DNA of 64,000 bases from Candidatus Omnitrophota bacterium (GTDB taxonomy: Bacteria; Omnitrophota; Gorgyraeia; Gygaellales; JBFMHM01), in assembly GCA_040753015.1 (NCBI GenBank), contig JBFMHM010000002.1, forward strand, positions 102,111 through 166,110, given 5' to 3'. Shown here piece by piece: positions 37,764 to 63,546 of this stretch. The first letter of the stretch is position 1. Every line of letters starts with the position of its first letter. Made by a program: the position numbers and the translations under genes. Below the pieces are notes generated by a model, which made no database searches, was not told the origin of the DNA, and was given only the letters and a program-made list of their open reading frames with translations.

Positions 37764-37765
37764 AT

Positions 37766-40575: not shown

Positions 40576-40585
40576 ATTATTTAAA

Positions 40586-41056
40586 TTAACGATATGAAAT
40601 TTTAATTTTAAAATAATTAAATAATTTTTTTAATAAATAAATTATTGCCAAGCTTAGCAAAAAAGTATAAAAAGCAGCAATAATAATTAATCTTATCGAG
40701 AAATTGTGCGAGAAGACCGCGAGAATCAAAAAATTGATAATAACCCCTATAAAAATAATCAGGCCTTGAGTAAATATCTGCTCCCTATAAACCTTAAATT
40801 TAATCCTTTTTAAAAATATATTCCATAGAGTATAAGTAATAATATTTAAACCAAAAAGGCCCGAAGAAAAGATATCTAATAATAAACCATTAAAAGCTGA
40901 AAGCATAAAAGATAAAGGATCCTTCAAAAGAAGGCTAAAAAAGACACATAGAATGAATAAAAATTGAGGTGTTATATTTGTATTAAAATAATAATTCCAA
41001 TTCAGTTGAATAAAAGCTGTAATTAGGCAAATAAAAAATAAAACAATAGCTCTCAT
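40586..41056 (-). CDS. mreD: MreD
   Basis: It is a small polytopic membrane protein directly after mreC. Confidence 0.6.
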   Translation of the reverse strand: MRAIVLFFICLITAFIQLNWNYYFNTNITPQFLFILCVFFSLLLKDPLSFMLSAFNGLLLDIFSSGLFGLNIITYTLWNIFLKRIKFKVYREQIFTQGLIIFIGVIINFLILAVFSHNFSIRLIIIAAFYTFLLSLAIIYLLKKLFNYFKIKISYR

Positions 41057-41803: not shown

Positions 41804-41807
41804 TAGA

Positions 41808-42878: not shown

Positions 42879-42925
42879 ATAAATTATAAGGCTTATGCAG
42901 AATATATCAAATGAATGCGCTAGTG

Positions 42926-43561
42926 TCAAGAAAAAATGTGCCGGATTATTTCATCACTTAATGCCTGCCTCGTAACAACCATTTTAATATTCTTAGTACG
43001 ATCTATTATATAAGCAATATGTTTTCTTTTTTTAATCTGTTTTAAATCGTTAGCAACAACTAAATCTGAATTATTTTTTAGTAGATCTTTATAAGAAGAA
43101 TTAATCAGCTCATCTTTATCTTTATTAACTTCTAATTTAAACTGGACTAGAAAAATTTTTGGATCATATTTTTTAATCAACCTGATAATTTTAGGTGTTG
43201 GAATGAGTTTTAAACAAAGATTATTTTTACCAGATTCTATTTTTTGTGCAGAAATTTTTTCAACCCTATAATCGCTTACTGCAGCTAGATGAATTACAGC
43301 ATCATATTTTTTTGTTTTGAGTTCTTGCTCTATTAAAGTAAACAGCTCGTCAAAATATTTAAAACGTTTAATTATAAGATTTGGATTTTTAAGGGTAAAG
43401 CTTTCAGTGACTGGGCCAAGCAATAACGTAACTTTTGCGCCTTGTTTTAGCGCAGTTTTCGTAATAGCAATACCAGTTGCGCCGCTTGAAATATTTGAAA
43501 TTACACGGACTTTGTCAATTGCAACCCATGTTGGGCCGCAAGTTATCAAAATTTTAGGCAT
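42926..43561 (-). CDS. coaB: phosphopantothenate-cysteine ligase (CoaB) as a separate gene
   Basis: It has the CoaB fold ([24 protein letters not shown]). It overlaps the coaC stop by 8 nt. Confidence 0.75.
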
Positions 43562-44129
43562 GCTTAATAATAGTGGATAAAATCAAATCGGCATCTGCCA
43601 TTGCCCCTTTACCAACAGTGCCGCAGGCAAGGCGTGAAATGCGTGGTTCAATAAAAATATATTTTCCGCCTGCTTGCCGGACAGGCAGGGGTATCTTTTT
43701 TAGCGATGCGATATTTTTTTGCATAATCTCGTTTTCCCACATATTTGTATTCATAGCAGGAGCGATTAAAACTTTAGTTTTTTTTGGCAAGGATAAAACT
43801 AATGCCGCTAATAAATTATCGGCAAAACCATAAGAAATTTTTGAGATTATATCTGCTGTGGCTGGGGCAATCACAACTAAATCTGCCCAGTTAGAAAGTT
43901 CAATATGCTGGCAATTAAATTCTGATATGGGTTTAAACATATCAGTGTAAACCGGATTTTGCGTAAGCGACTGAATTGTTAACGGAGTGATAAAATTACA
44001 CGCGTCAGGCGTAAGCACTCCCTTGACATTATAATTTTTGTGCTTTAAAACACTGATTAAATCACACGCCTTATAAGCAGCAATGCTTGCAGTTATTCCA
44101 ATAATGATGTTTTTATTACTAGTAGGCAT
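43554..44129 (-). CDS. coaC: phosphopantothenoylcysteine decarboxylase flavoprotein (CoaC)
   Basis: The flavoprotein N-terminus is IIIGITASIAAYKA. Confidence 0.8.
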   Translation of the reverse strand: MPTSNKNIIIGITASIAAYKACDLISVLKHKNYNVKGVLTPDACNFITPLTIQSLTQNPVYTDMFKPISEFNCQHIELSNWADLVVIAPATADIISKISYGFADNLLAALVLSLPKKTKVLIAPAMNTNMWENEIMQKNIASLKKIPLPVRQAGGKYIFIEPRISRLACGTVGKGAMADADLILSTIIKHA

Positions 44130-44133
44130 ATGT

Positions 44134-44382
44134 TTAAGATGGCTGGGCTATTCTATGTAAAAGCTCAGAAATAAAAGTTTGATACCTTATACCGAGCCGA
44201 TAAGCTTTATGTTTAATGTTTTCTAGGTCTTGCTTATTTACGCGAATATTTAAAACCGCATCTTTCTTCCTTGCAGATATAACACTAATAATTTGTTCGT
44301 ATTCCCGCTTATCCACAGGAACAAAATGCTCAAGATTATCTTCTATCGCCCGCTCTTCTTTTGTTAATTTAATCTTTCTCAT
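44134..44382 (-). CDS. BrnA-like antitoxin (RHH/CopG-like, DUF4415-type)
   Basis: The C-terminal GIRYQTFISELLHRIA resembles the BrnA G.GYQT.IN.ILR.Y motif. It overlaps the upstream toxin by 14 nt. Confidence 0.55.
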   Translation of the reverse strand: MRKIKLTKEERAIEDNLEHFVPVDKREYEQIISVISARKKDAVLNIRVNKQDLENIKHKAYRLGIRYQTFISELLHRIAQPS

Positions 44383-44659
44383 GGTTTCTCCTGTTTTTGT
44401 AAAATTTCGTTAACTTTCTGCTTGGATATATCGTCTTCAAAAATATTATTTCGCCATCTATTACATACGGCACAGCCCACAGATAACCTTTATACTGATA
44501 AATAAGAATTTTCTGATTTTCTCTATTTGGATGCCTACGTATGTCTATTAGCTTTGAAGCAATGATTTCTTCAAACGAAACGCCGCGCGTTTGCTTAAGA
44601 CGCTCGCTCTTTAATTGGCTCCATCTAATATCTTTCATACATTTATTTTGTATATACAA
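44369..44659 (-). CDS. BrnT-like toxin (DUF497, RelE-fold ribonuclease)
   Basis: Conserved elements are W....NE.NQ.KHGVSFEE and RIISAR-like IFLKTIYPSRKLTKFY. The toxin-before-antitoxin order matches BrnTA. Confidence 0.55.
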   Translation of the reverse strand: MYIQNKCMKDIRWSQLKSERLKQTRGVSFEEIIASKLIDIRRHPNRENQKILIYQYKGYLWAVPYVIDGEIIFLKTIYPSRKLTKFYKNRRNHEKD

Positions 44660-44695
44660 TTGTATTATACAAAATAAATAAGTTGTGTCAAGATA

Positions 44696-47600
44696 TTAAT
44701 GATTTAACGCTTCGATTTGGATGAGGCTTAGATCAATGCCGCCAAGGTTAACGGCGCCTTGCGATGGCTGACTTAATGCCTCGGCTGGGCTTTCGCCAGT
44801 GTAAACTCTTGCTCTCTCCTCTAGCGACAATATCGTGCCTGCACGATCGGTTATTTCATCGGAGGAAGCGCCGGCGCGCTGCAATAGCGCCTCGACTGCT
44901 TGATTCCAGTCGGATTGCCTCTTGACTTCTTGTTTTGCCATTATTGAAATAATAACATCTGAAATAAACAATACTATATTACTTATGCCAATAAATCCTA
45001 AAACAATTGGCATCGCAGAAAAAGAAAAACCTAAAGCTATCCCGCCCACCGTTAAATTAGCAAACGGCCCAGCTAATAAAGTAGCTACTTTTTTCCAAGT
45101 TGAAGCTCCCTCATAATTAATATCTGCGCTAGACCAAAGGTTGATCGAATTCACTTTTAATCCAAATAACTTCGCAGTTAAAATATGAGCTGCCTCGTGT
45201 AAAGGCAAAGCAACTACAAAAGCGCTAAACCGTAATAAATTACCCCGCCCGCCCCCCTCTCTTAATAACGCTGCTGTAATTGAACGCGTAGGCTCTCTTC
45301 TATCTACAAAAATAACACCCTTTTTCTTAAAAAAATCATAAAGCTTCTGCTCAGTATCGTAAATCACGCCTAACCTTTCATTATTACTATTTCTATCTTT
45401 ACGAATCGTAGCATTTCTAATTTTATTACCGTTTAAATCGCCATGAAACATTTTTGCGGAAAAGAGATCTGCGTCGGAGAGATCTGCAAAGGAAAGATCT
45501 ACACCACGAAGGTCTGCCTCGGAGAGATTTGCCTTAAAAAGGCTTGCGGTCGAAAGGTCTGCATTGTAAAGGATTGCGCGGGTAAGTCTTGTATTAAAAA
45601 AGCGTGAATTACTAAGGTTTGCTCCGGTAAGGTTTGCATTAAAAAGGTTTGTACGGGAAAGATCTGCGGAGGAAAGATCTGCACCGATAAGATTTACGTA
45701 GCTAAGAATTGCGTTAGTAAGAATTGCACGGGAAAGCTTTGCACCAGAAAGATCTGCGTAGCGAAGCTTTACGCCGGAAAGATCCTTACCAGAAAAATCA
45801 AATTTTGAAAGATCAAGCCTATAAAAAACAGCATTTTTAAAATAAGAAGCTTCGGATAAACTCTTCAAAGCCCTCACAAATTCATCATTAACTACAACTG
45901 TTTGGCCATCTTGAAGAGGCGAGCTTCTAAGATAATCTTGCTTGGCTTGATTAAATTCATCTATTTTTTGTTCTAAAGTTTTACTTGAATCGTTTAAAAT
46001 TTCTGTGAGCTGTTGTAATGTTTCCGCCCAGCCTTCTGGCGAAACGGCTGTAGGCCCGGCAGCTGACGGATCTGCTGGCGGAGTTACATCCGGAGGTGCT
46101 GGTGGCTGTTCATCCTGAGCCTGTCGAAGGACTGGCGCGTCAGCGGCTGGTGCTACAGGCGCAGGAGTTCCAACTTCAGACTCAATTACCTTGCCATCTT
46201 TATCTACTCTTTGCCCTTGCTCGTTAACAAAAATAATACCACGTTCTTGAGTTAAATATCTATATAATCTATCCATATCAAGAGTAACTTCTTTTAAACT
46301 TTTATAGCTTCCTGAATCCAATATCATCGCGTCTTGAATCTTATCTTTATCTAAGTCAGAAAATAACATCCTTGCTCCGGAAAGGTTTGCGTTGGCAAGG
46401 CTTGCGCCGGTAAGGGTTGTACCGCAAAGGTCTGCATTGGAAAGGTTTGCATTAGTAAGGTCTGCGCCAGTAAAATCTGCACCGCGAAAGTCTGCGTAGG
46501 AAAGAACTGCGCCGCGAAGGTCTGCGCCGGAAAGGTCTGCGTTGCGAAGGTCTGCGTAGGGAAGAATTGCGCCGCAAAGGTCTGCGTAGGGAAGAATTGC
46601 GCCGCGAAGGTCTGCGCCGCGAAGGCCTGCGTAGGAAAGAACTGCACCGGAAAGGTTTACGCCGGAAATGTCTGCGTTGCGAAGGTTTGCGTTGCAAAGG
46701 TATGCGTTGCGAAGGTTTAACCTTGAAAGATCTAACCTATAAATAGTACTACCTCTATTATAAAAACATTGTTCTAAACCTTTTATAGCGGTTATAAATT
46801 CAAAATTAACTGCAAGCACCTCACCTTCACTAAGAGGCGAACTTGCAAGAAAATCTTGCTTAGCTTGGTTAAACTCATTTATTTTTTGTTTTAGGGTTTT
46901 ACTAGTATCGCTTAAAATTGCTGTAAGTTGTGTAAGCACACCATCCCAACCTTCTGGCGATACGGCTGTTGCGTCATCTGCAGCTGGCGGATTAGCTGGA
47001 TCCGCTGGCGGAGCTGACGCAGGTGGCTCACCTCGTGGAACCGCAGATGCATCAGCGGTAGGCGCAGCTGCAGCTGAAACAGCACCGTCAATCACATTAC
47101 CATCTTTATCCACAGCTTGCCCTTGCTCGTTAACAAAGATAACACCCCGACTGGTCAGATAATCATACCGCTCTTGTTTAGTTGAATAAACATCATCCAA
47201 TCTTCTCCAAGTCCTAGCATCAATAAATAGTAAAATACCATTAATTTTATCAGTGTCTAAATCACTATAAAACATAACTGTTTGAGAAAGGTCTGGCCCC
47301 ATCTCTTTTTTTCTAGAAATGTATTGCGCGTAAGAAAATATTGCTCCTGATCCCCGACGTGCTATTATTTCAGCATTGCGTCTTAAATACACGTCCTCGG
47401 AAAGATCAAATGGTGCGAAAAGTCTTACACCAGAAATATCCTTTCCAGAAAAATCTAACCTAGAAAGGTCGAGTTGAATACAAATGGCGCTAGCTTGTCT
47501 ATTAAAATACCATGTCCGCTCTAATCTTCTTAAGCCATCCGCAAACGCATCATTAACTTTAAATGTTTGGCTAGATTGAAAAGGAGAGCTTCTAAGATAA

Positions 47601-50600
47601 TCTTGCTTGGCTTGATTAAATTCATCTATTTTTTGTTCTAAAGTTTTACTTGAATCGTTTAAAATTCCTGTGAGCTGTTGTAATGTTTCCGCCCAGCCTT
47701 CTGACGAAACGGCTGTAGCCTCTGCCGCAGGCCTCGCCGTTTCCTGGCGGGCTGGTGACGATGGATCTGCGGGCGGCTCGGCTGGTGGCGGTGCAGGCGC
47801 GTCAGAGGCTGGCGTAGCTAATTTTTCTCTTAAACTAGCAATTAATTGTTCATTATTCGCGCTTTCGCCAGATTCTTTCAGTAAACGAATAAGCTCATTA
47901 ATTACTGCTTGCTGTTGTAATTGCTCTAGAGTAAAACCATTATTAAGAAGCATTAAAATAATTTTAGCAGCCTTATCATCTGTTAGATTCGTTTCGTCTG
48001 CAATAGTCTCTAAAAAATTACCCATTTGTCTATTTACGCTATCCAATAATGCCATATCTATACCTTTTTCTTTTAATAATTGTGCCTGGTTTTGGACAAT
48101 AGCAGTATAGGCGTTGACTTTAAGTAAAGGTTCACTATCAGGAGTTCTTATTGCCATAGCAATAGCATTTGCAAATTCACCTGTTTCTGCACAAACTTGG
48201 ATAATTAAGTCAGAAGCTAAGAGTCTTTTGTAATCGTTACTACTGTCATTGGGAATTTCTTCTGCCGCAGCGCGTGCATTTTTAAGGTTTCTTTCTATTT
48301 TTCGTTTTGGTATTTTTGCTTTTATCTGAACTCTAGCAACAAGAGAATAGGCATTGGTTTTATAAAAAGGCTGGTCCTGATTATCGGGAATTTTTTTTAT
48401 CAAATTAATAATCAATCGCAAAATATCTTCTACTTCATTCATCGGCCTACCTATTTTTGCCTGGGTTTCGGCAATTATAAGAAGAAGGAGCGCTTTCCAA
48501 TATTCACCAGGTGCGAAAGTTCTTTCCGTTAACGTAGAAGCCAATCGCAAAGTATCTTCTACTTCATTCATTGGCCTACCTATTTTTGCCTGGGTTTCGG
48601 CAATAAATGTATAAGCTCTAATTTGGTCATCATAAGTTGCATCTGCATATCTTGTTGGAAGTTTTTCTGCTATATCAAGAGCTTTATTAATGTTTTCGAT
48701 TATTTCTTCTGTTGGCCTACCTGCTTGTGCTTGAGCTTGAGCAATAGAGGTATAGGCTTTAATTTGTGCCCAAGGGTCATAAATGCTTATTTCTTCTACC
48801 ATAATAATAGCCTTGTTAAGACTAGTAGATATTTCATCTTCCGGGCTACCTATTTCGATTTTAACTTGGGCGATAAATGCTTGGACGGCAGCTTGCGATG
48901 CACGATTAAGCGCAGTTGCAGCGATATCGGCTTTATTAATGTTTTCGATTATTTCTTCTGTTGGCCTACCTGCTTGAGCTTGGGCAATGAGTGCATAGGT
49001 CATAGCCTTATCAGGATCATCATCCTCCATCCTTATTACCAGGTTGAGAGCATCATTAAATCTGTTTAACGTTATAAAAGTTTCGATAACAGTGATGGTG
49101 GCTTTTTCTTTTTGGGAAGAATCATCAAATCTTTCTGCTGCTGCGATAGAGGCTAAACGTAAAGCTAAATCTTGCGTATGAATAGTTTTCAAAATTTCTG
49201 GAGTTAATACTACTGGTTCTCTTGCAGGCATTCCTGGATCTGCCGGCGGTTCGTCTAAAGGCGCTTGCGTAGCGGCTGATGCAACTAGCCCAGGAGGAGC
49301 TGGCGCGTCAGGGGCTGGTACTACAGGCGGTGTCGTCGGTTCGTTGCCAAACAAAATTGGAATTCGCGTGGATCTTGGAAAAGTTGGGCTGTCGCCTGTA
49401 CTAGGCGTAAGCCCGCAACTTACTTCAATCGCAGTTTTTGAAACACCTAATTCTCTCATTAAAAAATTAGCCAAAATGCCTTGTAACTGAGAGTGGCCTT
49501 GCAATGCTTTAAGCTGTTCTGTTGCAGCTTGAATAAATGCGGTTTTAATTGATGCGTCTGATTGTTGCGGCTCTGCCGCCTGCCCAGCACTTTGAAGCCT
49601 TGCGTGTTGTTCAGAAAAAAGCGTATGCGCCCGGCCAATAACATAATTAGAAACTCTTACGCCTGCTAACGACCCAGCCAAAACACCAGCCAAACGTTGC
49701 GCCACAAGAGGAACAGCGCTTCCAGCTCCGCCGTTTGGCGCAGTTGGTGAAGCAACACTTACAAAACGTAAAATTGCATCAGGCAGCGCACTTAATGCTT
49801 CTCTTTTTGCTTTTTCTATTTCAAGCATTGTTGCTCCAACTGGCACGCCGATAACTAAAGTTGCAGCCGGCGCAGTATCTGGCGTTTCTACTTCTCCGAT
49901 ATCAACATCCGCAGCAAGTTCAACACCATCTGTCGGTTCAAACCTCACAGCTACTTGAACCTCGGGAATTTCGTCAGTTGCTGGAACTGTGACAGTTTTT
50001 GCATCACGATTTGCTAACTCCACTCTAACTGCTCGCGCTCGTTCTGGAGTTAACTGCTCGAACGTTCTAGGAGCCTGTGGAGTAACGCTAGTTCCACCGG
50101 GTGCCATGCCTACCGGCAGGCAGGCACTAGGATCAGGCTCTGGCCTTGGCCCAGAGTCAACCCATTTTACTTTTTGCCGCATATCAGGGTCAGCTAAAAC
50201 AGTATCTGTTGCATTGGGTGAAACCAAAAACCATTTGCGGCCGCTAATCTCTCCGTCGCAAGCCACAGCGCCTGCTTCAATATCTCTTGCTAAGGCGCAA
50301 TGCCCCAACATCACAACTAAATTATTTTTTTCGCCGGAAAAAAATAAATCTTTAGCTTGTCTGCCAGCATATCTCTGGCAAACTAACGAACCATTATTTT
50401 GATAAATCAACTGGCTATCGCCTGAAACTCTGTCAATTAACTCAAAACTAAAATTTGCATCAGACGGTTTATACAAGCGAATAATCAGCTCTGAATTATC
50501 TTTCTTTAAATATACCTCTATTTTACCGTGTTCATCCTCTAAAGTTTTTCTAATATAAATAGCATTTGGCTCTTCTCTATCCCTAACTTCATCCTGCCTC

Positions 50601-53600
50601 CACTCTAAAGCCTTAAAAATTGCTTCAACTTTCTTTTCTTCAACTTCTTGATAACCGTCAATAGGAATATCGACAAAAAGCTTAGTTGTATTTTGCTCTG
50701 TCTGGTTTGCAAAACTAAATGTTGCGCCTAATTTGCGCAATTCATTTCTAACCCTAAAGTAAGGCTCTAATGCGTGATATTCTTTTCCTTGCATACATAA
50801 ATTACCTAAGTCGCCTTCGCCTGCCTCGAATAAAGCAGTTTTTAACCACTTACGAAGTGGTGCAGAAAAACTTATTTCTAAACGCAAATGATTGCCAAAG
50901 CTAAGCCAACTAACAGTAATTCCGCTATCTGCCAACTCACTTTGCCAACGCTCTATATCATTATTGTCAATTTGTCCAGCCTCTGGTGGTTGGACAAATT
51001 GATCCTGAGCACCGTCGAAGGATCTTAATCTTACGCCAAGCTGAGGCTGGCGATAAACTTCAGCCAATAAGCGGCCTTCTTGATTAAATGCGTGGCGCAT
51101 TGCGGTTTCTTTTTTGGCAAGCGTCAACCACTGGCTAACTAATTGCATTGCAAATCTAATTTGTTGTTTATTTTTATCTGGCTTAGGCACGCTAGTTTTT
51201 AATCTTTGCTTTTCTGCATTCCATTCTCTATCAGGCCTGCAAAAATTAATATCACTAGTTAAGAATGTCTCTGTCCCAGCCATAGCCAAAGCTTCACCTC
51301 TTGTTTCTTCAATAGCCATCCAAGTAATTTCAAGCGCCTCGGTTACAGCTTCTTGGGTAATCTCACTAATTGGCCTTTGGTACAGCTCTTCTAAATTCCT
51401 CATCTGCATTGCTTCAACTTCTGTCATCTCTTGGCCAACAACCCGAGCAACTGCGGGGATAAATTTAAACCTTAAATCTCCGTCCACAACAAAAACCTCA
51501 ATAGCATCACCATCATTCCAAGCATCTCGTTCATATAATCCACTGGCAAATTTAGTTAAATTTTCCTTAAACTTATCCAACACATTAGCAAGCGGCCGCG
51601 CTCCTTGGCCTGCCTCAAACCCAAGCTTGTAAAAATAATCTAGCACTGCCGTCTTATGTTCCGGGCTAACTCTAACCTCAATTGGATAAAACTTATTTCT
51701 TGCATCTTTATAAACCCAATTTTTATAGGGCTTTAGTTTTGCTTCTGCCATTGCCTTAAACATTGCCTCATCCATAAATTTAAACGGAACTATTTTATCA
51801 AGCCGCGCTAAAAATTCCGGACGGTATTTATATTTATGATAAGCTGATATTTGTGCATCTAATTCGTCGTAAAAACGCGTAAGCGCTTCTGAGTCTGTTT
51901 GTGCTGCATCAAGTGCCTTTTTGTATTGCTGGTAAGCGTCTGGCCCACCTGTTTGAGGTGTTAAAAAACGGCCTGTTGCCGCGTCATAAGTTTCTTCAAC
52001 GCCGCCGTTTGAGGTAAAGATAATAATACACTGGCTAAAAGAAACTGTGTTGCCTTTTGAGTCAGTTAAACGCCCATCGTCGGTAAGAGACAATAAAAGC
52101 ATCAATATTTCTTCTTTGTCAACGCGATGCAATTCATCAAATACGATTACACTTTTTGGGTTGCGTTTTACTTGACTGGTCAACCAATTTTCTGAATCAT
52201 CATGCCCAACATATCCGGGCGGTGCACCGATTAATCTCGTGCTAGAATCCATATCAGCCATAGGCACATGAATATAATTATACCCTAACTCGCTAGCTAC
52301 CACCCTTGCTAATTCTGTTTTACCCACACCTGTTGGCCCAGAAAATAAAAAGCTGCCTACAGGTTTATTCGGTCGCTTTAAACCGGATTCAGCACGATAA
52401 ATTGCACTAACCACTAAATCGACCGCCTCATCTTGGCCAACTAAACGGGCTTTAATACGCCCTTTTAAACTTAACAAATCACTAGTCTTTCTCTGGCTAA
52501 CAAGCAAAGAATCAACGCCGCGTTTAATTAAAAATGAGCGCACATCTTCTATTGTCGGGGTAAGCTTTACATCCTGCCTGTCAACACTGCGCCAACGCCT
52601 AATTTCGGCAAGTGATTCTGCTTGTTTTACTGGCTGGCTTCTTCGTTTTGCTGCCTTTATTTTTTCAGCTAAGACACGAGCAATATTACGTTTTTCTTTT
52701 ACCGGTTGTTTTTGTAAACCTATCTCTTTTGCTTTTGCACTATAATGCTGATCGAGAAATTCAGCCAATAACATCTTATGGTCTTCGTCAGCTAAGGCTA
52801 TAGCAAATAACGACAAAGCCTGCTCCATTAATTCAAAAGGCATTAAATCAGTTGTTTCTGGCAAAGCCCCAGTTATCGGCGATATATGCTTTGCATAATA
52901 CGCCCTTCGTAACACAAGCCACATATCTTCAACTTGCCCAGCCTCTGGCGCTTGGGCAAGTTGATCTCGAGTCCCTGCGAGAGATCTTTCTAATAAATCA
53001 ACACGGCTAAACCATTGTTCATAAAGCGGGTCTCTTAACACAGCCTCTGAACTAGTTGATAGAATTAATCTCCCCTTCTGCTCATCTTTAAACGCGCTTA
53101 AGAATTGCCCTAAGTGGAACTCCGCGCCAGTTGGTAAACCATCTCTGCCTTGAGCGCTAATACTAGCTTTTTGAAAACTATCTAAGTCCAAATAAACAAC
53201 CGTGCGTATTCCTTTTTTCTTATCATCGTCGGCAATTGCATCTAAAAGCCTGAGCACAGTTGCCTCAAACTTTCCTGCCAAACTAAATGTAGTTGCAAAA
53301 CTAGAAAACTTTAAACTAAGAACTCTGACATTTTCTTGGCCATTCAATTTTCCCTCACAAGCTAAGCGGCTATATTGCTGGACTAATTGCTCGGTTGCTT
53401 TTTGGTTTTTTGCCCAAAGAAGAGGAAAATTTCTGCGTGCTTGAGCTTGAATTGATAAAACGCTTACCATTGTCTCTGGGTTAATACTTTCTTCGGGAAT
53501 TCTTCCTTGGCTAGAAAACGCCGTCAGATTTACCACCATTTCATTTAATTCTTTTTCTTGCTGTTTTATCTTATCAACTGAAGCTTCATCGGCATCTTCT

Positions 53601-56600
53601 GGAATGGGTAGGGAAATTTTAAGTTTATCATTATTCCAAGCAGCATTAGGCGGAACCTGTGCAACAGGTGTTGGCAAAAGCGCTTGCTTTGCTTCTAAAT
53701 TAGAAGCAGCTAAAATTGCTCTTGTTGTTGGATGAAGCGCCTCTTGCGCTTGTTGCCTAACTACTTCACCTACCGGCTCAGTTAATTTAAAAGTAATTTT
53801 TCCTTCACTATCAGCACTAACTGAAATTTGAGTTCCCTTGGGATATTTTTTTGCAACTAAAATTTCTGCTAATTGCGAACCAATTAAATTATCAATAGCA
53901 CGAGCCATAGGACGCGCGCCATTAACCGCGTCATAGCCTGCCTTAAGAATTACCTCTTTTGCCGCATCATCAAAATTAAGAACATAACCTTGGTTAGCCA
54001 GTTTTTCTTTTAACATATCGAGGATAAAATCGCGGATTTTTTCAATTTCTTTTTTGCGCAAACGCTTAAACACCAAAATTTCACCGATACGGCCTTGCAT
54101 CGAATTTATAAAATAACGATTAATTCTTTTCCTTATTTCATCTTGTATGCTTTCTTCCATAACATCAAGTAACTGACTACGGCTTGCACTACTTAAATCT
54201 TTACCAGCTTCCTCGCTATGCCTATTTACTTGGCTAATTAAGCGGCAAACACCCAGCCTTTCTTCCCTTGCCTTAGACGTCATTACCTTTAATTTTTGAA
54301 TATAATCCCATAGGCCGCCAAACGCCTCTTCGCATTGCCTGCGTTCTTGCGGCAGCAATCCAAATTCATCAAGCCTAGCAAATCTTCCAGCTTCACCTTG
54401 TTTGGGAAATCGATCTGGCACACAATCAGGTTTTTGCGCCCGCAAATATGCCTTTAATGCCGAATCTCTATTTGCAACAAGCGGGCTAATCCAAAATTCC
54501 TCAATATTATCCAAAACATCTTCTAACGTCAGGCGTTCAGGAAGAAAATCTAATTGGACGCTGTTTAATGCCCTGCTAAATACACCGCCCGGTTTAAGCG
54601 TTTCCTCAATAAGTTCAGCCACTTCATTAAACACATCTTTATTATATGCACGAAGCTGAATAGCTGCCTGCTGCAACCTTTGGCGCTTAGCAGCTGCAAC
54701 ACGTCTTCCCATTTCAGGATCCATTGCTTGCAACTCTTTCTGTGGTTCATCTTCAATAGCTACTTCTTTACCAGCTTTTTTGTATTCATCAATTTGCTTT
54801 TCTTTTTCTGTAATTTGACTCTGCAATCTAGTCCTTTCAGCATCGACACTGGCCCTGTAAAAAGCAATCTTAAGCTCATATAATTCGATATATTCACCAA
54901 ACACATCAATAAGTTGCTTAGTGTGTTTAATATGTTCTAAATTTAGCTTAACATTTTGTTCAAGAGAATTCTTGTATTCAGCTTGCTGGCGCTTTAAAAG
55001 CACGAGCAACTGCTCGGCTTTTCTATGCTCGTCGGTAATTTCAACCCTAAACCATGAATAATCACTTGCCGCAAGCTCTGTCTCGTCTTGCGCCTGAGTA
55101 AACTCCTCATCACTCATTAAATCTATTGCATCCATTGCCCGATATGCGTCGTAAATTTCCGGAGTCATGCCTAAATTTGAAGTCATTGCAATTAAGTGAT
55201 TAGTTGCCGATAAAGTTTCTCCTGTTGAACTTTGTGTTGTGCCTGTATCAAATAAATCATATAAATTTTCTAATACATCCGGATGCGCCTTTTCAAGTTC
55301 ATCCAATAAAAGAACACCAATAGGCGAGGCTCGTAAAATTTGCACTAATCGCCCGCCATTTTTATCATAACCAACATAACCTTGCGGTGCGCCCATAAGT
55401 TTTGTTTTAGCAAATTCATCTTGCAGCTCTGCCATATCAATGCGGCCCATTTTGCCGTCAAAAATAAGCTCAGCAATTGCTTTTACAAGCTCGGTTTTTC
55501 TACGCCCGTTGGGCCTGCCAACATAAAAACACCAATTGGTTTATTTGGCTCTTTTTGTCCGTTAACAAATAAACGAATTTTTGCTAAAATGGCATCGACT
55601 ACATGTTCGTGGCCAACATAACGCTTTGCTAAATTTTCTTTAAATCTATCAACGCGCGCTCTAATATCACCGGTTAATAAGCTAACTGTAGTTTGCGCCT
55701 CTTTTGCCAGCGCAGTTAAAACTTCTTCTTCGCTAATTCTTACGGATGGGCCTAAAGTTGTATCTACATCGCTTGCGCCCGCCATTACCATTACCCAATA
55801 ATCCAGGCGGCCAGTTAAAAATTCAACAAGCTCTGGTGTGTTAGCCTGCTCTAACTCGCCAATTAAAGCCAAGGCTCGGCTTCCGGCATAAGCTCTATCT
55901 AAATTACTCCTGTATTCTTGTTTTTTATTTTTATCAACTAAAAGTTTCTGAATTAAATCTATTGCAATTTCCCTTTCTGAAGCTTTAGGCAAGAATTTTT
56001 TAGTATAACCCATAATCCGCTTTAAAAATTCAAACGCATCATCGCTTTCAATTTTTAAATTTAAAAGCTCGTTATGCACGGTTTTAAACCACGGTAACCC
56101 CTCTTCTAAAAGCCGCAAAATTTCATCTGCCTCTTTTTCGAATTCAGGAGAGCTAGATAGCTCGTAACGTTGAGGATACTCCATAATTTGAGATATTTCT
56201 TTCCATTTGTTTCTAGGAAATACCGCCTGAATTGTTTTAGGCTCACCGCCAATAATTACAGGAATTGGGCTTTTAAGAAGCTCATCTAATAACCACTCTA
56301 AGCGCGAGCCAAGCTTAAACTTCAAACTCAAAATTCCCGCGTATTCTTCAGCATCAATATAAAAAGCTAAATTACGGCGCGTGCCTTTTTTTTCTGCATC
56401 GTGATACACCTTGCGCATATTGCTGACAAAAGCGCGAACAACCTTTTCAAAACCATCTGCCTGCAAAAACACTCCGCCGGCTAATAATTTTTTAATATCT
56501 AATTTTAAAATTTCTAACTTTTGTAAAGAAACTGGCAATGGGCTGTCATCAAGGCTTGCTTGATAAGCCAAAGAACGTATTGTCTGCTCTACTTCTCTCG

Positions 56601-59421
56601 GATGGCCGATTAAAATAATATTATTATTACTTGTATTTTTAATTTCATCTAATCTATCTACAAAACCTTGATCTGGCCTTTGGTGTAAACTTAAACTTTG
56701 CGAAGAGCCTTCGAATGTTTCTATCTTGGAAAGATAAGCCATCAAGTTTTCTTCAGTTTCTCCTTCTCTGCCATCGTCTGGATATATAGGAGAATAAAAA
56801 TTACCGCCTACTAGAGGCGCGCCAATCATTGCTGCCATAGCAGCAAAAACATCATCGCCAGAAGAGGCATCACCAAAAAACTTAAAATAAAACCAGCGAA
56901 ATAAATATGCGGCCGGAATTAATAATAAAGGTAACAATAAAGATTTTAATATTGTGGTTTTTGCAGGGCCACTGCCTGGCCTTGGCGATTTTGGACCTTG
57001 ATCATCAGTCTCTGTTTCTGCTGCTTTTTTACGCAATGCGTCCCGTTGTTCTCTAGCGTCTGCGCTATAATCATGATGATGATCAGCATGAACAGTTCCA
57101 TCAGCGTGGCGATGCTGGCCTTCAGGAACACCGTGATGATGTGGATGTCTTGCGCCACTAACGTTACCATCGTGATCGCGGTGAATATGCTTTACAAGCA
57201 TCCTGTTATGTATTCTACCTATCCTAGCCTCTACTTCATTTCTCTTGCCAGCCTTAATTCTAGGCACTCTCGTGCTATAGCCATAACGGGTTTTTTCTAT
57301 TAAGCCTTTTTTAGAAAGTGCACGTTTAATAATTTCCTTTGCTTTATCTTTATCGTTCTCGTCTAACTTTCCTTCACCAATTGCCTGCTCTGCAATTTCA
57401 TCAGCCAACCTCTCAATTACTTCCGGATTATTTGTTCCGTTCTTTCGTAATTTACCATCATTTAAAATATTTAAAAGTCCTCTTGTAATCCAAGTGCGGA
57501 AATTATGCTCCATCGTAAGATCGCTGATATCACTATCTTTATCAGCTTCTTCAACTGACGTATTAATTTCATCTAAGATTTCATTTAACAGTTCCTCATC
57601 GCCTTTATCATCATCTTCATCTTTATCATCTTCATCTTCATAATCATCGCTATTTTTACGGCTATCTTCTATTTGTGCCAACCGCCACATCGGACCACAA
57701 CTCGCTCCTATTGAACCCTCGCTAACATCTACATCTGTATCTTCAGCGATTTTGTTGCCCCTTTTTTGCTCCTCTACTACTCTATTATGCGCTTGTATCC
57801 AATTTAAACCTTGTTTGCGATAATATATTTCGCGTTGTTCGTGCAACAAAACATCAGTATCTAAGGTACTTTGAAAACCAACTATACGCCAAACATTATC
57901 TGTACCTTTAAAATTAATTGCCTGTACGCCATCATCTAAGTTAATTGCCCATCTTTTGAGCACATCAATAATTCTTTGCGCGTCTTGATCCCTAACATTA
58001 TCATTAATCGCAATAATTCGGTTTCCCACATCATCTGTATTAGTTTTAACTGCCCCCAGCTTATCAAGCTGTGTAATACAATATTCAACAATCTCTCGAT
58101 TACTAGCGTTTTGTGATAATTCAGGAACTTTCTTACTTCTTGCCAAAACTCTTAGAATTCTTAAAAGATTTTTTAGATTCTTTACATCAGATACTTCTGC
58201 GCCAATATCTTCTGGTTGCCCAATGCTTACCGTAATTGTAACTGGCACCCTGCCTGCCTCTCCCGCTGTTGCTAGCTGTGTAGGAATTTCTCCTGTTGGC
58301 GCAAAAAGTACACCGCCTGAGGCATAGGTGCGGCGGATTTTATGATTTATCGTAGGGGCGAAACCATGTTTTCGCCCATTAATTATAGGGCGATTACGCG
58401 GAATCGCCCCTACAACATCAACCAATTTGTATTCGCCTTTTGTTGAGTTTAGATAAGATTTGTAGATTTGTTCTGGTTTAAACTTAAGGTTGTTGGTTTT
58501 TTGGTAGGTTTTTATGAATTGCTCTAACTTTTCGCTTTTCGCTTTACTCTTTACGCTTTTTTTGTACCATTGTGCAAAAATGAGTGCTTGATATATTTGT
58601 CTAAGTGGTTCATAGGCTTTGTCTTGGTTTACTCGTTGAGTTAGTTCTGGGAGTATTAGTTGTTTTAGATGAGATTCACAATATTCCTGTAGTTCCTCAG
58701 TTCGTCTGTTCTTCAGTTCGTCAGTTCGTTTGTCATTGGAAATTGGGATTTGGGATTTCTCAAGGTATTCGCTTTCTAGAAGCACCTTGAGCGTTGCTTT
58801 AACTATTGTTATTGAGCTATCTGTCTCATAGACCCTTGCCTCATCTGGCACTATCCAGACACGAAAGGTAGTTGGTACTTTGTAGTTAGTAGTTTGGTTT
58901 TGTTGTTTTGGTCCTAATTTTAAATTTTGAGTTATAGTTTTACCTTTTTCGTTTTGAGTTTTTACTTCCAAAGTTTTGGCTTTAGTAAATACTTTATCCC
59001 AATAGGTTTTAGCATTTTTACCATAACCGGGTAATAATTCAAAGGCTGTGTCTTTCTTAAGCTTTAAATCTAATACTAAGAGCGCTTTACCTAAATCAGT
59101 ATCAGCTATTGTATTGCCGATGATTCTACTTGGGTCATTAGGGTTTAGATTAACCCAAAGATCTTTGTAGTCTATAGATAGGCTAGTAAAGAAATAATCT
59201 AGAAGTTCTTTGGTTTTAAGCTTCTTTTGTTGTTCTGAGAGGTTGCGAGGAAGAAAGTTGAAATTAAAATTAAAACCTGAATTTAGACTAAGCGAAACAA
59301 ACGAGGCGTTTGGGTCATGCACTTTTAGGCTAACAACTTGGCCAAAGCTAATACTCTGGCAAAGAAAGGTAAATGCCAAAAATAGACAAAAAATCCTCTT
59401 TATATGGTTTACTTTAATCAT
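44696..59421 (-). CDS. giant multidomain protein, about 4,900 aa as a single reading frame interrupted by one frameshift near 55.49-55.50 kb
   Basis: ORF 55483..59421 ends ...FMLAGPTGVEKPSL* and ORF 44696..55450 starts MGRIDMAE.. LMGAPQGYVGYD. Restoring one G (GTAGGAAAAACC) gives the contiguous ClpB-D2 sequence [30 protein letters not shown]. The domain content is listed in the findings. Confidence 0.7.
45923..46052. repeat. intragenic direct repeat of ~130 bp, near-identical (3 mismatches) to 47591..47720, with a diverged third copy at ~46845..46975
   Basis: I aligned the two copies by eye (agcttctaagataatcttgcttggcttgattaaattcatctattttttgttctaaagttttacttgaatcgtttaaaat...ccgcccagccttctg.cgaaacggctgtag). 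Each encodes SPEGWAETLQQLT.ILNDSSKTLEQKIDEFNQAKQDYLRSSP. Confidence 0.8.
46340..46760 (-). repeat. pentapeptide-repeat coding block (15-nt periodic tandem units, A(D/N)LxG-type)
   Basis: The protein reads NLRNADISGVNLSGAVLSYAGLRGADLRGAILPYADLCGAILPYADLRNADLSGADLRGAVLSYADFRGADFTGADLTNANLSNADLCG. Two further blocks lie at ~45430..45860 and ~47270..47520. Confidence 0.8.
55493..55503 (-). other. single-nucleotide frameshift site inside the Walker A codons (observed GTAGAAAAACC; GTAGGAAAAACC needed for GPTGVGKT)
   Basis: The downstream frame is open through the site and encodes ...[29 protein letters not shown]. The upstream frame terminates 3 codons later. Confidence 0.7.
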
Positions 59422-59591: not shown

Positions 59592-60863
59592 TTATTTTTT
59601 TTCTGTATCAATAACCCTTACCTGTGAAGATATTTTATCAAATAATACAACTGGCAAAACTAAATTAATAATTATTTCTTTATCGGTATATAGAATATTT
59701 TTTATATTAGCTTTTTCATGCAATAAATTAACAATATTCATTTTATCTAACCCTAAAGCAAGCGTTAATGCAAGTGTCTTTGATAAAAGAAATCCTTCGA
59801 TTGTTGCAAATAATTTATCAAAATTCAACTTGCTAAGTGCAGAAATTTCAATTGAATTTGGAAACGAATTTTTTAAAGTTTTAAGCCAAGCTAAATCATC
59901 TACTCGATCTATTTTATTTAAAACAGTAATAATTGGTTTTTCGTTAGCGCCAAGTTCTTTTAAAACAATTTCGACTGATTTTGCCCGTTCGTTAAAAGTT
60001 TCAGAGCTAATGTCTAGAACATGTAATAATAAATCTGCTTGCCGAACTTCTTCAAGCGTAGCCTTAAATGCTTCTACTAAATGATGCGGCAGACGATGTA
60101 AAAAACCAACTGTATCAAACAAAACTACTTCTTGATGATTTGGCAAAATCAATGTACGCGATACTGAATCAAGTGTAGTAAATAGGCTATTGCGAGAAAG
60201 TTCTTCTGACCCGGTTAAGGCATTCAAAAGCGTGGTTTTACCAGCATTCGTATAACCTACTAAACCAATTAACGGTACACCAGTTTGTTTTCGTTTTTCA
60301 CGAAGCCGTGCTCGATGCATCGAAACATCATCTAAATCTTTTTTTAATTTCGCTATTCGCTCGCTAATTCTTCTGCGGTCAATCTCAAGCTTCTGTTCGC
60401 CCGGGCCTCGCGTACCGATGCCACCGCCTAAACGCGATAATTCTATGCCCTTACCAGAAAGCCGCGGCAATAAATATTGTTTCTGTGCAAGCTCAACTTG
60501 TAATTTTCCTTCAAGCGTTTTAGCATGCTTTGCAAAAATATCTAAAATTAATTGCGTGTGGTCAATAATTCTTTTATTAATTATTTCCTCAAGGTTTCTT
60601 TGATGCGTGGGCGATAAATCATGATTAAAAATAACTGTATCAATATTTTTTTCTTGGCAAATTAAACGAATCTCTTCTGCCTTACCTTTACCAATATAAC
60701 AGTTTGGTGCTGGCTCATCGCGCTTAACTAAAATTTCATCAACAACCTCTGCACCAGCAGTTTTTGTCAAATCTCTTAACTCTTGGCTAATATCTTCTAT
60801 TGACCAAAAATCTTTTTGGTGCTCATGTGCAAATTTTACAGTTACAAGTAAGACGCGCTCCAC
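59592..60863 (-). CDS. hflX: GTPase HflX
   Basis: It has the HflX N-terminal domain and the G domain (GYTNAGKTTLLN, DTVGF, NKID). Confidence 0.9.
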   Translation of the reverse strand: MERVLLVTVKFAHEHQKDFWSIEDISQELRDLTKTAGAEVVDEILVKRDEPAPNCYIGKGKAEEIRLICQEKNIDTVIFNHDLSPTHQRNLEEIINKRIIDHTQLILDIFAKHAKTLEGKLQVELAQKQYLLPRLSGKGIELSRLGGGIGTRGPGEQKLEIDRRRISERIAKLKKDLDDVSMHRARLREKRKQTGVPLIGLVGYTNAGKTTLLNALTGSEELSRNSLFTTLDSVSRTLILPNHQEVVLFDTVGFLHRLPHHLVEAFKATLEEVRQADLLLHVLDISSETFNERAKSVEIVLKELGANEKPIITVLNKIDRVDDLAWLKTLKNSFPNSIEISALSKLNFDKLFATIEGFLLSKTLALTLALGLDKMNIVNLLHEKANIKNILYTDKEIIINLVLPVVLFDKISSQVRVIDTEKK

Positions 60864-61711
60864 TCAATCCTCTTATCTTTATTAAACCAGGTCATTTGAC
60901 GCTTGGCATAACGACGGGTATTTTTAGCCATTTCTTCTTTTGCCTGTTCTAAAGTAATTTTTCCGTCTAAATAATCCTTTATTTCTCTAATACCTATTGC
61001 AAACTGTGCGGTTTTGCTGAGTTTTAATTTCAAAAGTTTTTTAACTTCTTTGACTAACCCTTGCTTAATCATTTTATTTACTCTTTTGTTAATTTTATTA
61101 TAAAGCTCTTCCCTGTTTAAATTTAATCCAAAAATCTTGATATCATATTTACCCCAAATCCCGGAACGCTTTTCTTTGAGCTCTGAAAATTTTTTATCTT
61201 GCGAAAGACAGACTTCAAGGGCACGCACAATACGCCTTAGATCATTAGGATGTATTTTTTCTGCTGCTTCCGGATCCAATTTCGCAAGCTTATCATAAAG
61301 TTTTTGACTGCCAAACTTTTCTGCTTCTTTGTATAGCCTTGCCCTAATCTCTGGGTTTTCTTTTACGCCTTCAAATATTCCATCAAGCATGATAGTCATA
61401 TAAAGCCCTGTGCCGCCAACGAATATAGGCGTTTTATTCTTTTTAAGAATTTTCTCAATTAATGCAAGGGCTTTCTTGCGGTATTCGGCAACACTAAATT
61501 CTTTTGTTGGACTTATTTGGCCAATCAAATGATGTTTAACTTTTTTTAAATATTCTTTTTTGGGATATGCTGCAACAATATTCATTCCTTTATAAATCTG
61601 CATTGAGTCAAGTGAAATAATTTCTCCAGATATTTTTTTTGCAAGTTTATAGGCAAGTTCTGATTTGCCGCTTGCAGTCGGACCAACAAGAAAAATAATA
61701 TCTGATTTCAT
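60842..61711 (-). CDS. miaA: tRNA dimethylallyltransferase
   Basis: The P-loop is GPTASGKSELA. It overlaps hflX by 22 nt with no hfq between them. Confidence 0.9.
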   Translation of the reverse strand: MKSDIIFLVGPTASGKSELAYKLAKKISGEIISLDSMQIYKGMNIVAAYPKKEYLKKVKHHLIGQISPTKEFSVAEYRKKALALIEKILKKNKTPIFVGGTGLYMTIMLDGIFEGVKENPEIRARLYKEAEKFGSQKLYDKLAKLDPEAAEKIHPNDLRRIVRALEVCLSQDKKFSELKEKRSGIWGKYDIKIFGLNLNREELYNKINKRVNKMIKQGLVKEVKKLLKLKLSKTAQFAIGIREIKDYLDGKITLEQAKEEMAKNTRRYAKRQMTWFNKDKRIEWSASYL

Positions 61712-63546
61712 TTTCTTAGCAATTCTAACTCTTTTTTAATAATCTCTTGTTTTAGGCGATCAGAAGCATTAAGTTTAGTCAATCCAATCGTGAATACATT
61801 TTTTGCTTCTTCTTTTTTATCAAGCCCTTTATAAGCAAGGCCTAATTGATAATATGCTAACTTATTTTCTGGATCAAGCGATAATGTTTTTTGAAACATA
61901 ACCACAGCATCCTTAAATCTAAACTGCTCGTTATAAATAAAACCTAAACTATAATATGCCTCGGAAGCTAAAGGATTTATTTCTATTAATCTTAACCAAT
62001 ATTTATTAGCTTCCTTGAGATTACGTAAATAAAAACTTAGCTCGCCCGCAAGAAATAATGCCCTTTGATTATCTGGCCTTATCATTAAGGCCTTCCTTAA
62101 TTCTATAAAAGCATTATAATATTGTCCATCATTATAAAGCCGGGAAGCTATAAACATATATGATTCGAAATCGTCTGATTGAATTAATGATTTTTTATAC
62201 CAAGAACTATCACAGAATAATAACCCATAAGCTAACAACAATAAACAAGTAAAAACAATAAAATATTTTTTCTTTTTTATAACATAAATCCAATTAGTTA
62301 GCCCATAAGATGCAAATATAATAAATATAGGGGTAATAATAATACGGTATCTGGAAGTTATGAAAAAAATAGTTATACTTATAGCAATGCTGACTAAAAA
62401 TATATACAACAAAGCTAATTTTTTAAAATTTTTTATACCAAACAATACTCCCGTTATTATGAATGGGAAAATAAAAATAAGATTACTTGGCAAATACTTT
62501 AATATATCCACATTTTCTCTAAGTATATAAAATTCAACTTCATTGGTATATTCATATGGGCTAAAAACTAAACCCAGTTTTTTTATTATAAGTAATAAAT
62601 GCCTAAATGGCTCTCTGCATATAGAAACGATTCCCCGTTTAAACCAATAAAATGAGACCTCTGATGTTTTAAGCTGCCTGCCAACGTTATACGATGCAAT
62701 AATCCTGGCATTTCTAAAAATACCCTCTTGACTAGCACTAAATTCATCGGGACAATAGAATATTCCATTAGCATTATGATTATTACCTATATAAAAATTA
62801 ATTCCGGCGTTACCCTGTATTAGGACGAAGTCTTTTTCAACTAAATAATTATGTATGACTGTTAAACTAATAATAAATAAAGCACCAATTATAAAAGATA
62901 TAAATCTAAAAATTATGATATGTAATTTATTTTTATTAATAATTAATAACCACAAACAAGCACAACTAGCAAAAATAATAATATTTCCCTGTAAAATAGT
63001 AGCTATCCCAGAAAGAACTCCTATCCAAAATAATTTTAATCCATTTAAATCATCTTTTGTCTTTATAAAAATAAATAAAATTATAAGGTTTAATAAAATT
63101 GATATGGTCGTGTAAACGGCTAGGCTTTCAAAGAAAATGAATAAACCATAAGTGGCAGTTAATAAACCAGCAAGAAAAGAGGCTTCTTTATTAAAAAACT
63201 CTTTTGAGATAAAATAAACTAAAACACTACTTAACACCCCAATAATAAACTGTAAATAATATACCACAGATAGTTTTATACCAGATATTTTAAATATACC
63301 TGCTAAAATATACGGGTATAAAGGCCACTTCATAAATGCCTTATGGTTCAAAAAATCACCATAAACAATATCTTTTGCCCAGCGAAAAAATTCCTGGCTA
63401 TCCGAATTCAAGGCAAATGGAAAAATAGATGTAGTTAAGTAATCTTGCATATAAAGAAGCCTTATAATTATCGCTGTTAATATAATAATTGAGAGGTATA
63501 TCAAATCTTTATATTTATTATAAAAGGCGGGCTTTGATGTGATCAT
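61708..63546 (-). CDS. ArnT/PMT-family (GT-C) membrane glycosyltransferase with C-terminal TPR repeats
   Basis: About 11 TM helices with a conserved early loop are followed by ~150 aa of TPR-like repeats (AYYSLGFIYNEQFRFKDAVVMFQKTLSLDPEN...). Confidence 0.55.
   Translation of the reverse strand: MITSKPAFYNKYKDLIYLSIIILTAIIIRLLYMQDYLTTSIFPFALNSDSQEFFRWAKDIVYGDFLNHKAFMKWPLYPYILAGIFKISGIKLSVVYYLQFIIGVLSSVLVYFISKEFFNKEASFLAGLLTATYGLFIFFESLAVYTTISILLNLIILFIFIKTKDDLNGLKLFWIGVLSGIATILQGNIIIFASCACLWLLIINKNKLHIIIFRFISFIIGALFIISLTVIHNYLVEKDFVLIQGNAGINFYIGNNHNANGIFYCPDEFSASQEGIFRNARIIASYNVGRQLKTSEVSFYWFKRGIVSICREPFRHLLLIIKKLGLVFSPYEYTNEVEFYILRENVDILKYLPSNLIFIFPFIITGVLFGIKNFKKLALLYIFLVSIAISITIFFITSRYRIIITPIFIIFASYGLTNWIYVIKKKKYFIVFTCLLLLAYGLLFCDSSWYKKSLIQSDDFESYMFIASRLYNDGQYYNAFIELRKALMIRPDNQRALFLAGELSFYLRNLKEANKYWLRLIEINPLASEAYYSLGFIYNEQFRFKDAVVMFQKTLSLDPENKLAYYQLGLAYKGLDKKEEAKNVFTIGLTKLNASDRLKQEIIKKELELLRK

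Follow-up and report, generated by a model that had tools for sequence, protein, structure and literature searches.

The window analysed here is a 64-kb stretch (64,000 nucleotides, nt) of contig JBFMHM010000002.1 from a metagenome-assembled genome (MAG) of Candidatus Omnitrophota bacterium, and on its minus strand lies a giant gene that is broken into two open reading frames (ORFs). The upstream ORF loses its frame within the codons for the Walker A motif (P-loop) of an AAA+ ATPase module and stops soon afterwards, and homology continues in the -1 frame, which is open over the same nucleotides and for thousands of codons beyond them (Table 1). Read along the minus strand (55620 down to 55380), the zero frame runs ATT GGT GTT TTT ATG TTG GCA GGC CCA ACG GGC GTA GAA AAA CCG AGC TTG TAA, which translates up to the stop as ...IGVFMLAGPTGVEKPSL and gives the upstream ORF the C-terminus ...NKPIGVFMLAGPTGVEKPSL (...GVFMLAGPTGVEKPSL, stop). 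The -1 frame over the lesion reads ...RRKTELVKAIAELIFDGKMGRIDMAE, also written ...GRPNGRRKTELVKAIAELIFDGKMGRIDMAE, or TNWCFYVGRPNGRRKTELVKAIAELIFDGKMGRIDMAE.... Because this frame contains no stop in its 3,600 codons downstream of the lesion, versus 244 and 413 stops in the other two frames, it is not open by chance.

The frame as deposited does not encode the Walker A consensus GxxxxGK[T/S] and reads GPTGVEKPSL before it terminates. The consensus is restored solely by inserting one G beside 55500 (GTA G^AA AAA CC to GTA GGA AAA ACC), which yields a single ORF of 4,908 amino acids (aa) with no internal stop, encoded by 14,726 nt (14.7 kb), in which GPTGVGKT occurs at aa 1303 and an intact second copy of it at aa 2362. 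A first-pass annotation of the window had proposed both that a frameshift lies in the Walker A codons and that one extra G would recreate the second nucleotide-binding domain (NBD2, or D2) of ClpB. Both proposals were borne out: the lesion is on the minus strand, and the repaired ORF, reading GPTGVGKTE, aligns to ClpB NBD2. The same annotation had placed the lesion beside an A5 run, and this adjacency is correct, but the A-run is not the source of the lost base, since it is A5 with or without the repair and the absent base is a G from a GG pair rather than a homopolymer unit.

In GenBank, the upstream ORF is 100% identical to MEW5758409.1 (P0001; AB1755_02935, 'MAG: hypothetical protein' [Candidatus Omnitrophota bacterium]), a protein of 1,298 aa that is encoded on a contig of 260,384 bp, is annotated from 59379 and ends ...GPTGVEKPSL. 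The downstream ORF corresponds to MEW5758408.1, a 'pentapeptide repeat-containing protein' of 3,593 aa, whose start MAELIFDG is IAELIFDG in the window and was called from an ATT (55475-55477) six bases past the upstream stop; the choice of an ATT start is itself a warning sign of an artificial gene break. The lesion sits in the deposited assembly, where the two halves are listed as two ordinary genes.

Table 1. Features of the broken giant gene, in window positions.
Feature	Position	Strand	Remarks
Upstream fragment of the broken gene	55483..59421	-	1,312 codons from first ATG (59421); no Pfam match alone
NBD1-like pseudo-ATPase of unit 1, NNNIILIGHPREVEQTI instead of GEPGVGKT	56122..56709, approximate	-	Family profile collinear with ClpC 6em8_A 169-666
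Downstream fragment (-1 frame), 3,614 open codons	44696..55540	-	Begins mid-AAA+ fold, without strand beta1 and P-loop; Pfam AAA_2 from profile position 28, not 1
Walker A (P-loop) remnant, NBD2 of unit 1: GGC CCA ACG GGC GTA G^A AAA ACC	55493..55515	-	23 nt versus 24 needed for GPTGVGKT
Lesion site: single G where family and internal paralogue need GG (Gly codon GGA of G-K-T)	55500..55500	-	Loss of one G, a -1 frame shift
Premature TAA	55483..55485	-	5 codons past lesion (E K P S L, stop)
Walker B of broken module, LLDELEKAH, intact	55283..55309	-	Translation; alignment to ClpB and family
ClpB_D2-small domain, closes unit 1	53819..54061	-	PF10431, E 2e-20
Intact NBD2 (AAA_2) of second Clp-like unit	51791..52366	-	Walker A GPTGVGKT at 52316..52339
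Pentapeptide-repeat modules, three, N-terminal of membrane domain	Pfam matches ~46406-46537, ~45629-45847	-	Pfam
C-terminal membrane domain with HEAAH motif	44924..45223	-	Weakly M50 site-2 protease-like, below Pfam cutoff

The two ORFs derive from one gene

Several alignments run through the repaired junction as if it had never been interrupted. The gene's second module is 38% identical to a stretch made up of the final ~50 residues of the upstream ORF and the initial ~130 residues of its downstream counterpart, and the repaired segment aligns with NBD2 of Thermus thermophilus ClpB (1qvr residues 541-733; E 5.5e-43) with no break at the P-loop. The repaired module also covers positions 1-137 of the Pfam AAA_2 profile with 115 bits, whereas the annotated downstream coding sequence (CDS) covers only positions 28-137 with 83 bits, and the tail of the upstream ORF alone gave no Pfam match. 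This profile coverage places the break within one fold, between beta1 plus the P-loop on one side and helix alpha1 on the other.

We then searched 1.84 billion representatives exhaustively with HMMER, taking the first 1,199 downstream residues as the query. Giant proteins of 2,881-7,819 aa (P0058, P0060-P0063, P0066, P0068, P0073 and P0103) ranked above the mass of ordinary ClpB and ClpC, and those with names carried 'AAA family ATPase [Candidatus Omnitrophota]'. Eight of these homologues (all except P0103) contain unit 1, the first of two Clp-like units described below, in one ORF, with 19-27% identity to the window copy over that unit, and have two ClpB-NBD2-like modules ~1,000 residues apart with GPTGVGKT in both. 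P0103 is likewise continuous over the junction, with a variant loop, AGTGVGKT, in its first module. BLAST alignments were collinear over residues 1303-1310 for P0061 (query 926-1446), P0063 (958-1422), P0066 (926-1420) and P0103 (934-1424). The sequence GPTGVGKTE is invariant in all nine unit-1 sequences (the repaired window copy and the eight homologues), and a split at the P-loop occurs in none of the eight aligned homologues. The continuity of the homologues and the unbroken alignment to ClpB NBD2 together show that ancestrally there was a single gene, not two; a 1-nt deletion splits it here.

The reading implied by the GenBank records, that these are two genuine and separately evolved genes, is very improbable. 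NCBI does list both halves as proteins, and the downstream frame offers an in-frame ATT and an in-frame ATG 6 and 33 nt after the stop. However, the break lies inside a single AAA+ fold, between the glycine and the lysine of the P-loop, such that the downstream product would lack beta1 and the P-loop, and upstream of the lesion the downstream frame extends for just 14 open codons. Neither candidate start is preceded by a signal resembling a Shine-Dalgarno (SD) sequence, although many genes here also lack one. The scenario that the first-pass annotation had associated with two real genes, in which orthologues are split at the same point, is contradicted by all eight of the homologues compared. 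MEW5758409.1 and MEW5758408.1 are thus pieces of one 4,908-aa protein and should be merged or flagged as frameshifted, as the uncorrected records would seed protein clusters with a truncated AAA+ domain. That the annotation pipeline raised no frameshift flag probably reflects the lack of a close full-length reference.

The broken gene encodes a member of a family with two tandem ClpC-like units

The N-terminal part of the protein consists of a hydrophobic, signal-like segment (aa 9-30), a domain of ~370 aa, acidic and His-rich stretches, and a transmembrane (TM) helix (aa 822-846). After this helix come Clp-like unit 1, unit 2, a long TPR-like repeat region, three pentapeptide-repeat modules and the C-terminal HEAAH membrane domain. 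The two tandem ClpC/ClpB-like units form the core, each comprising a pseudo-ATPase NBD1, a coiled coil and a catalytic NBD2. A family profile of unit 1 matched ClpC (S. aureus 6em8_A, residues 169-666, spanning NBD1, the M-domain and NBD2) in one collinear stretch with E 6e-113, indicating that each unit is a complete class I Hsp100 body. The upstream ORF holds everything up to and including the pseudo-ATPase NBD1, the coiled-coil linker and the first ~50 residues of NBD2, to GPTGV. A Pfam scan of this 1,312-aa ORF gave no match, hence no N-terminal Clp_N domain was found.

The NBD1 was revealed by the family profile only, and a single-sequence search of the PDB with the NBD1-like region gave no match. 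Its Walker A is degenerate in all members (IGHPREVEQT in the window copy, GDPxxxQG in homologues) and its Walker B is replaced by NFQD; a catalytically competent NBD1 (GxxGxGKT plus DE) was not found in any aligned family member. The description of the broken module as the first intact AAA+ module is therefore apt, since the NBD1 upstream of it is a pseudo-ATPase without Walker A in every member of the family. Outside the lesion, alignment to ClpB and the family indicates that the window copy keeps the Walker B (LLLDELEKAH), the GYVG pore loop (GYVGY), the MTSN sensor-1, GRIGEILVF and the NGARPM sensor-2. The window copy is also the most divergent member, deviating in 27 of 69 otherwise conserved columns, mostly conservatively.

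The resemblance to class I Clp/Hsp100 proteins (ClpB, 1qvr; ClpC, 6em8) lies in the collinear NBD1, middle domain and NBD2 body of unit 1 and, after repair, in an NBD2 with Walker A, the Walker B DE, GYVG, sensor-1, the GARP sensor-2 and the D2-small domain. The differences are more numerous: the window protein has two units in tandem within a polypeptide of ~4,900 aa, both NBD1s of the family lack Walker A and Walker B, Clp_N is absent, a coiled-coil insertion of ~300 aa lies inside NBD2 (that of unit 1 in the window protein), a TM anchor and variable appendages have been added, and in the window copy the frameshift abolishes the P-loop of the first NBD2. The appendages are pentapeptide repeats and an M50-like domain in the window protein, and GNAT, HEAT, NHL or M50 domains in its relatives, of which P0061 has a bona fide N-terminal Peptidase_M50 with NHL repeats and P0060 has GNAT and HEAT. 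Members of the family, which range from 2,900 to 7,800 aa and also include P0082, share the acidic stretch, the His-rich stretch, the TM helix and the two tandem ClpC-like units, whose catalytic NBD2 holds a long coiled-coil insertion. By analogy with the Clp/Hsp100 machines, we infer that the protein would form ring assemblies that thread polypeptides by means of ATP hydrolysis in the NBD2 tiers.

Database names for the family go no further than 'AAA family ATPase' or 'ClpA', and no description of the family or the locus was found in the literature on Omnitrophota giant proteins, AAA proteins or ClpB. A giant family with two tandem ClpC-like units and pseudo-ATPase NBD1s apparently has not been described. 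Giant genes of Omnitrophota have been reported as very long ORFs: their N-terminal regions, near signal peptides, are poorly annotated, and they have TM segments and numerous accessory domains, among which an AAA-type ATPase is listed (West-Roberts et al., 2023, bioRxiv 10.1101/2023.11.21.568195). The window protein shares the phylum and a similar architecture with these, which are far larger, some exceeding the ~40,000 aa of titin, and neither ClpB nor frameshift nor pseudogene turned up in a term search of that report (West-Roberts et al., 2023, bioRxiv 10.1101/2023.11.21.568195). The gene that hosts the lesion is thus more interesting than the lesion, and the frameshift adds nothing to the understanding of the giant family.

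Among the word-index protein searches, one was saturated by ordinary ClpB and ClpC and another, without the ClpB-like core, returned nothing, missing even the self proteins P0001 and P0057. Because the word index has such false negatives, the absence of a close relative of the giant gene is only weakly established.

Both ends of the protein have features of their own. The N-terminal domain (~58222-59340 on the minus strand, aa ~28-400 of the upstream ORF) has no Pfam match and contains the motifs WVNLNPNDPSRI, DLKLKKDTAF, FRVWIVPD and LKVLLESEYL. Many of 56 homologue hits were matched through the N-terminal part of the query; they were large proteins, the named ones mostly from Omnitrophota, with Pfam domains as diverse as HEAT, HD, metallophosphoesterase, methyltransferase and NHL. 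Three paralogues in the same MAG, P0002 (73% identical) and P0003 and P0004 (43%), have this N-terminal domain in common with the window protein. Judged by this distribution, it looks like a lineage-specific export or anchoring module. At the other end, the C-terminal third (~45500-47700 on the minus strand) contains three repeat modules, each of which opens with a nearly identical segment of ~45 aa (EGW..TLQQLT.ILNDSSKTLEQKIDEFNQAKQDYLRSSP), with Pro/Ala-rich linkers before it and pentapeptide repeats after it, the repeat region of the first module being degenerate. Repeats this similar could be collapsed or mis-joined in an assembly.

The junction lacks the hallmarks of recoding and phase variation

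A frameshift within an ORF might be bypassed during translation, or might belong to a genetic switch, and the first-pass annotation had listed a phase-variable or slippage-prone site among three options for this locus. That option found no support, as the junction has no long tract, no slippery heptamer, no stimulatory structure and no conserved split, and slippage would give GVEKT.

With respect to recoding, a -1 slip on GAA-AAA-C, with tRNA-Lys re-pairing on A AAA, would produce some full-length protein and set a ratio of short to long product. The site is suggestive to the extent that tRNA-Lys can re-pair perfectly one base back on A5, that the shift needed is -1, and that the stop lies only 5 codons on; a -1 shift at a Lys AAA codon in an A-run is also what characterizes programmed frameshifting in E. 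coli dnaX (A AAA AAG) and in insertion-sequence (IS) transposases. Unlike those systems, however, the window site has neither a tandem-slippery heptamer, nor an upstream SD-like or downstream stem-loop stimulator, nor conservation. The zero frame, GTA GAA AAA CCG, contains no X XXY YYZ heptamer, and a P-site GAA cannot re-pair. Folding of the 131 nt that begin at the site is no more stable than that of shuffles (minimum free energy -32.4 versus a mean of -30.3, z -0.64, with 56 of 200 shuffles as good), and the next codon, CCG, is not rare (26% of Pro codons), which argues against hungry-codon slippage. Moreover, the slippage product would carry Glu in place of a glycine that is invariant in the nine aligned sequences, resulting in a defective loop, and none of the homologues has a frameshift here. 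Transcriptional slippage needs runs of about 9 or more, for which A5 is too short. Leaky suppression of either kind is therefore very unlikely.

Even less plausible is a phase-variable contingency locus, at which changes in the length of a G or A tract would switch the giant protein on and off at high frequency. Large surface-associated proteins are typical targets of such switching, and the lesion both adjoins a homopolymer and resembles the poly-G and poly-A loci of Neisseria, Haemophilus and Campylobacter in being an indel in the coding region of a large envelope-associated protein. Known phase-variation switches have runs of ~7 nt or more, whereas the tracts here are only G1 (G2 if repaired) and A5, far too short, and 120 runs of at least 5 nt and 37 of at least 6 nt in the same gene are all in frame, which makes this site among the least slippery. 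In addition, we know of no contingency switch housed in a catalytic motif that is invariant. The lesion disrupts the gene by an ordinary frameshift, of a kind already known, and is not a regulatory device. Like frameshift pseudogenes and genes split artificially, it combines an indel of a single base with an immediate stop, homology carried on in the shifted frame and two abutting CDSs. It differs from them in nothing essential; what is unusual is only how large the gene is and that it lacks a close full-length reference.

The first-pass annotation had also called it striking that the lesion hits the catalytic P-loop, which looks like coincidence, as no mechanism, mutational or selective, that targets the site was found. 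The two P-loops occupy 48 of 14,726 nt (0.33%), and when all named AAA+ motifs are counted a random indel would fall in a 'remarkable' place ~1-2% of the time. Such a position is uncommon, yet it was called striking only in hindsight, any other named motif would have invited an equal comment, and a frameshift anywhere in the first third of the gene would be equally inactivating.

Weighing a recent mutation against a consensus error

The other two options, a sequencing or assembly indel and a genuine inactivation, both still stand. An old pseudogene would be expected to have decayed further, but no additional stop was found in the 3,600 downstream codons, although 1,510 single substitutions out of the 32,400 possible there would introduce one. 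Because none is present, neutral divergence since the lesion is less than ~0.6% at 95% (assuming equal rates), which establishes recency on this scale. Taken with the intact catalytic motifs, this leaves a very recent lesion, continued selection on the downstream part, or a lesion that is not real.

We favour a real, recent null allele, either fixed in the population or a variant chosen by the assembler, with a probability of roughly 0.55. The indirect evidence leans modestly towards a real variant. The 49 ORFs of the window outside the giant gene (46.8 kb) are all intact although they contain 227 homopolymer runs of at least 6 nt (90 of at least 7 nt and 30 of at least 8 nt), and together with the giant gene's own the window ORFs contain 264 runs of at least 6 nt, all in frame, which argues against systematic indel error in the assembly. 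The lost base came from a 2-nt run, rather than from a long homopolymer of the kind where indel errors concentrate, and no second frameshift candidate was found in the 64-kb window. A 14.7-kb accessory gene is, moreover, a large target for genuine mutation. From these observations we infer that the lesion is more probably real than a consensus error.

The alternative is an artefact of sequencing, assembly or polishing: the true sequence would be GTA GGA AAA ACC, the 4,908-aa gene would be intact, and one G would have been dropped from the consensus. We regard this as a distinct possibility, though not as the better account. It would explain why the whole 10.8 kb of downstream frame is undamaged, along with every other catalytic motif. 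Consensus indels do occur in MAGs, to which the source belongs, the site is where G2 meets A5, and an ATT start was needed to call the downstream CDS, as is typical of an artificial break. An artefact sits less well with a window that has no other broken gene, with the intact long homopolymers, which suggest that platform-type indel errors are rare here, and with a lost base outside any such run. Misassembly induced by repeats is implausible as well, and was rejected, because the two P-loop regions have no long identical DNA in common.

Some points count against the favoured interpretation of a real null allele. Looking up both ORFs and P0001 by exact sequence in the contig collection turned up no second assembly or close strain, and a scan with 700 aa of query across the junction gave a single spurious match (32% identity) in each of the genome and metagenome contig sets. 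A perfectly preserved downstream frame with intact catalytic motifs is also what an artefact would look like. Finally, the weighing drew on the assembled sequence, and its prior came from general rates of pseudogenes and assembly errors rather than from data on this sample.

Other places in the window where open frames overlap were examined as possible frameshifts and rejected, as they are distinct full-length genes (PBP2, RodA, radical-SAM, PilO, MlaD, FecR-domain, STAS, HATPase and SNase). The coaC/coaB junction (43554-43561) was rejected likewise: it is a clean ATGCCTAA overlap at a domain boundary and looks natural.

Predicted consequences of the lesion

If the deletion is real, one G has been lost from the Gly codon of G-K-T in the Walker A of the first catalytic NBD2, and ribosomes would read E-K-P-S-L and stop. 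The cell would then make a fragment of 1,312 aa consisting of the exported N-terminal domain, the TM helix, the pseudo-NBD1, the linker and a stub of NBD2 without the Lys and Thr of its P-loop. Little or none of the 3,600-aa remainder would be made, as it has no evident start signal of its own. Were it made, it would start at the ATT or the ATG and carry an AAA+ domain that lacks beta1 and the P-loop. No SD-like signal was found before either candidate start, which is a weak point given that many genes in the window also lack one. In every such scenario unit 1 would be ATPase-dead, and the lesion would show no more than the recent or ongoing loss of one costly accessory gene from the population.

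A variant of this outcome is a real deletion that the cell tolerates, since both pieces of the gene would still be in use, with the 1,312-aa exported, membrane-anchored fragment made constitutively and a little of the 3,600-aa ATPase/pentapeptide part made through rare -1 slippage or reinitiation at the ATT or ATG. We consider this very improbable. Were it true, the first NBD2 would be a pseudo-ATPase, as both NBD1s are throughout the family, and with reinitiation the product would have the N-terminus MAELIFDGK or MGRIDMAELQDEFAK.

Genomic surroundings of the giant gene

The giant gene is flanked by ordinary housekeeping genes, and it thus lies in a core chromosomal region rather than in an obvious mobile element. 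On its downstream side (36084-42929, minus strand) are mreB, mreC, mreD, the gene for PBP2, rodA and a gene for a radical-SAM protein, and on its upstream side (59592-63546, minus strand) are genes for an HflX-like GTPase, miaA and a PMT_2/TPR glycosyltransferase. The G+C content is 38-44% over the giant gene (window 44001-58000) versus 28-36% over the flanking housekeeping genes, a contrast that could stem from the Ala/Pro/Gly-rich C-terminal half of the protein or from a foreign origin.

Between the downstream flank and the giant gene, coaC (Flavoprotein, 191 aa) and coaB (DFP, 211 aa; together window 42926-44129, minus strand) are separate genes with the ATGCCTAA overlap, rather than the usual fused coaBC. 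Just downstream of the giant gene (44134-44659, minus strand) are two small overlapping ORFs, one of 96 aa with no Pfam match and one of 82 aa that is weakly similar to CopG-antitoxin/NikA, which may constitute a toxin-antitoxin pair.

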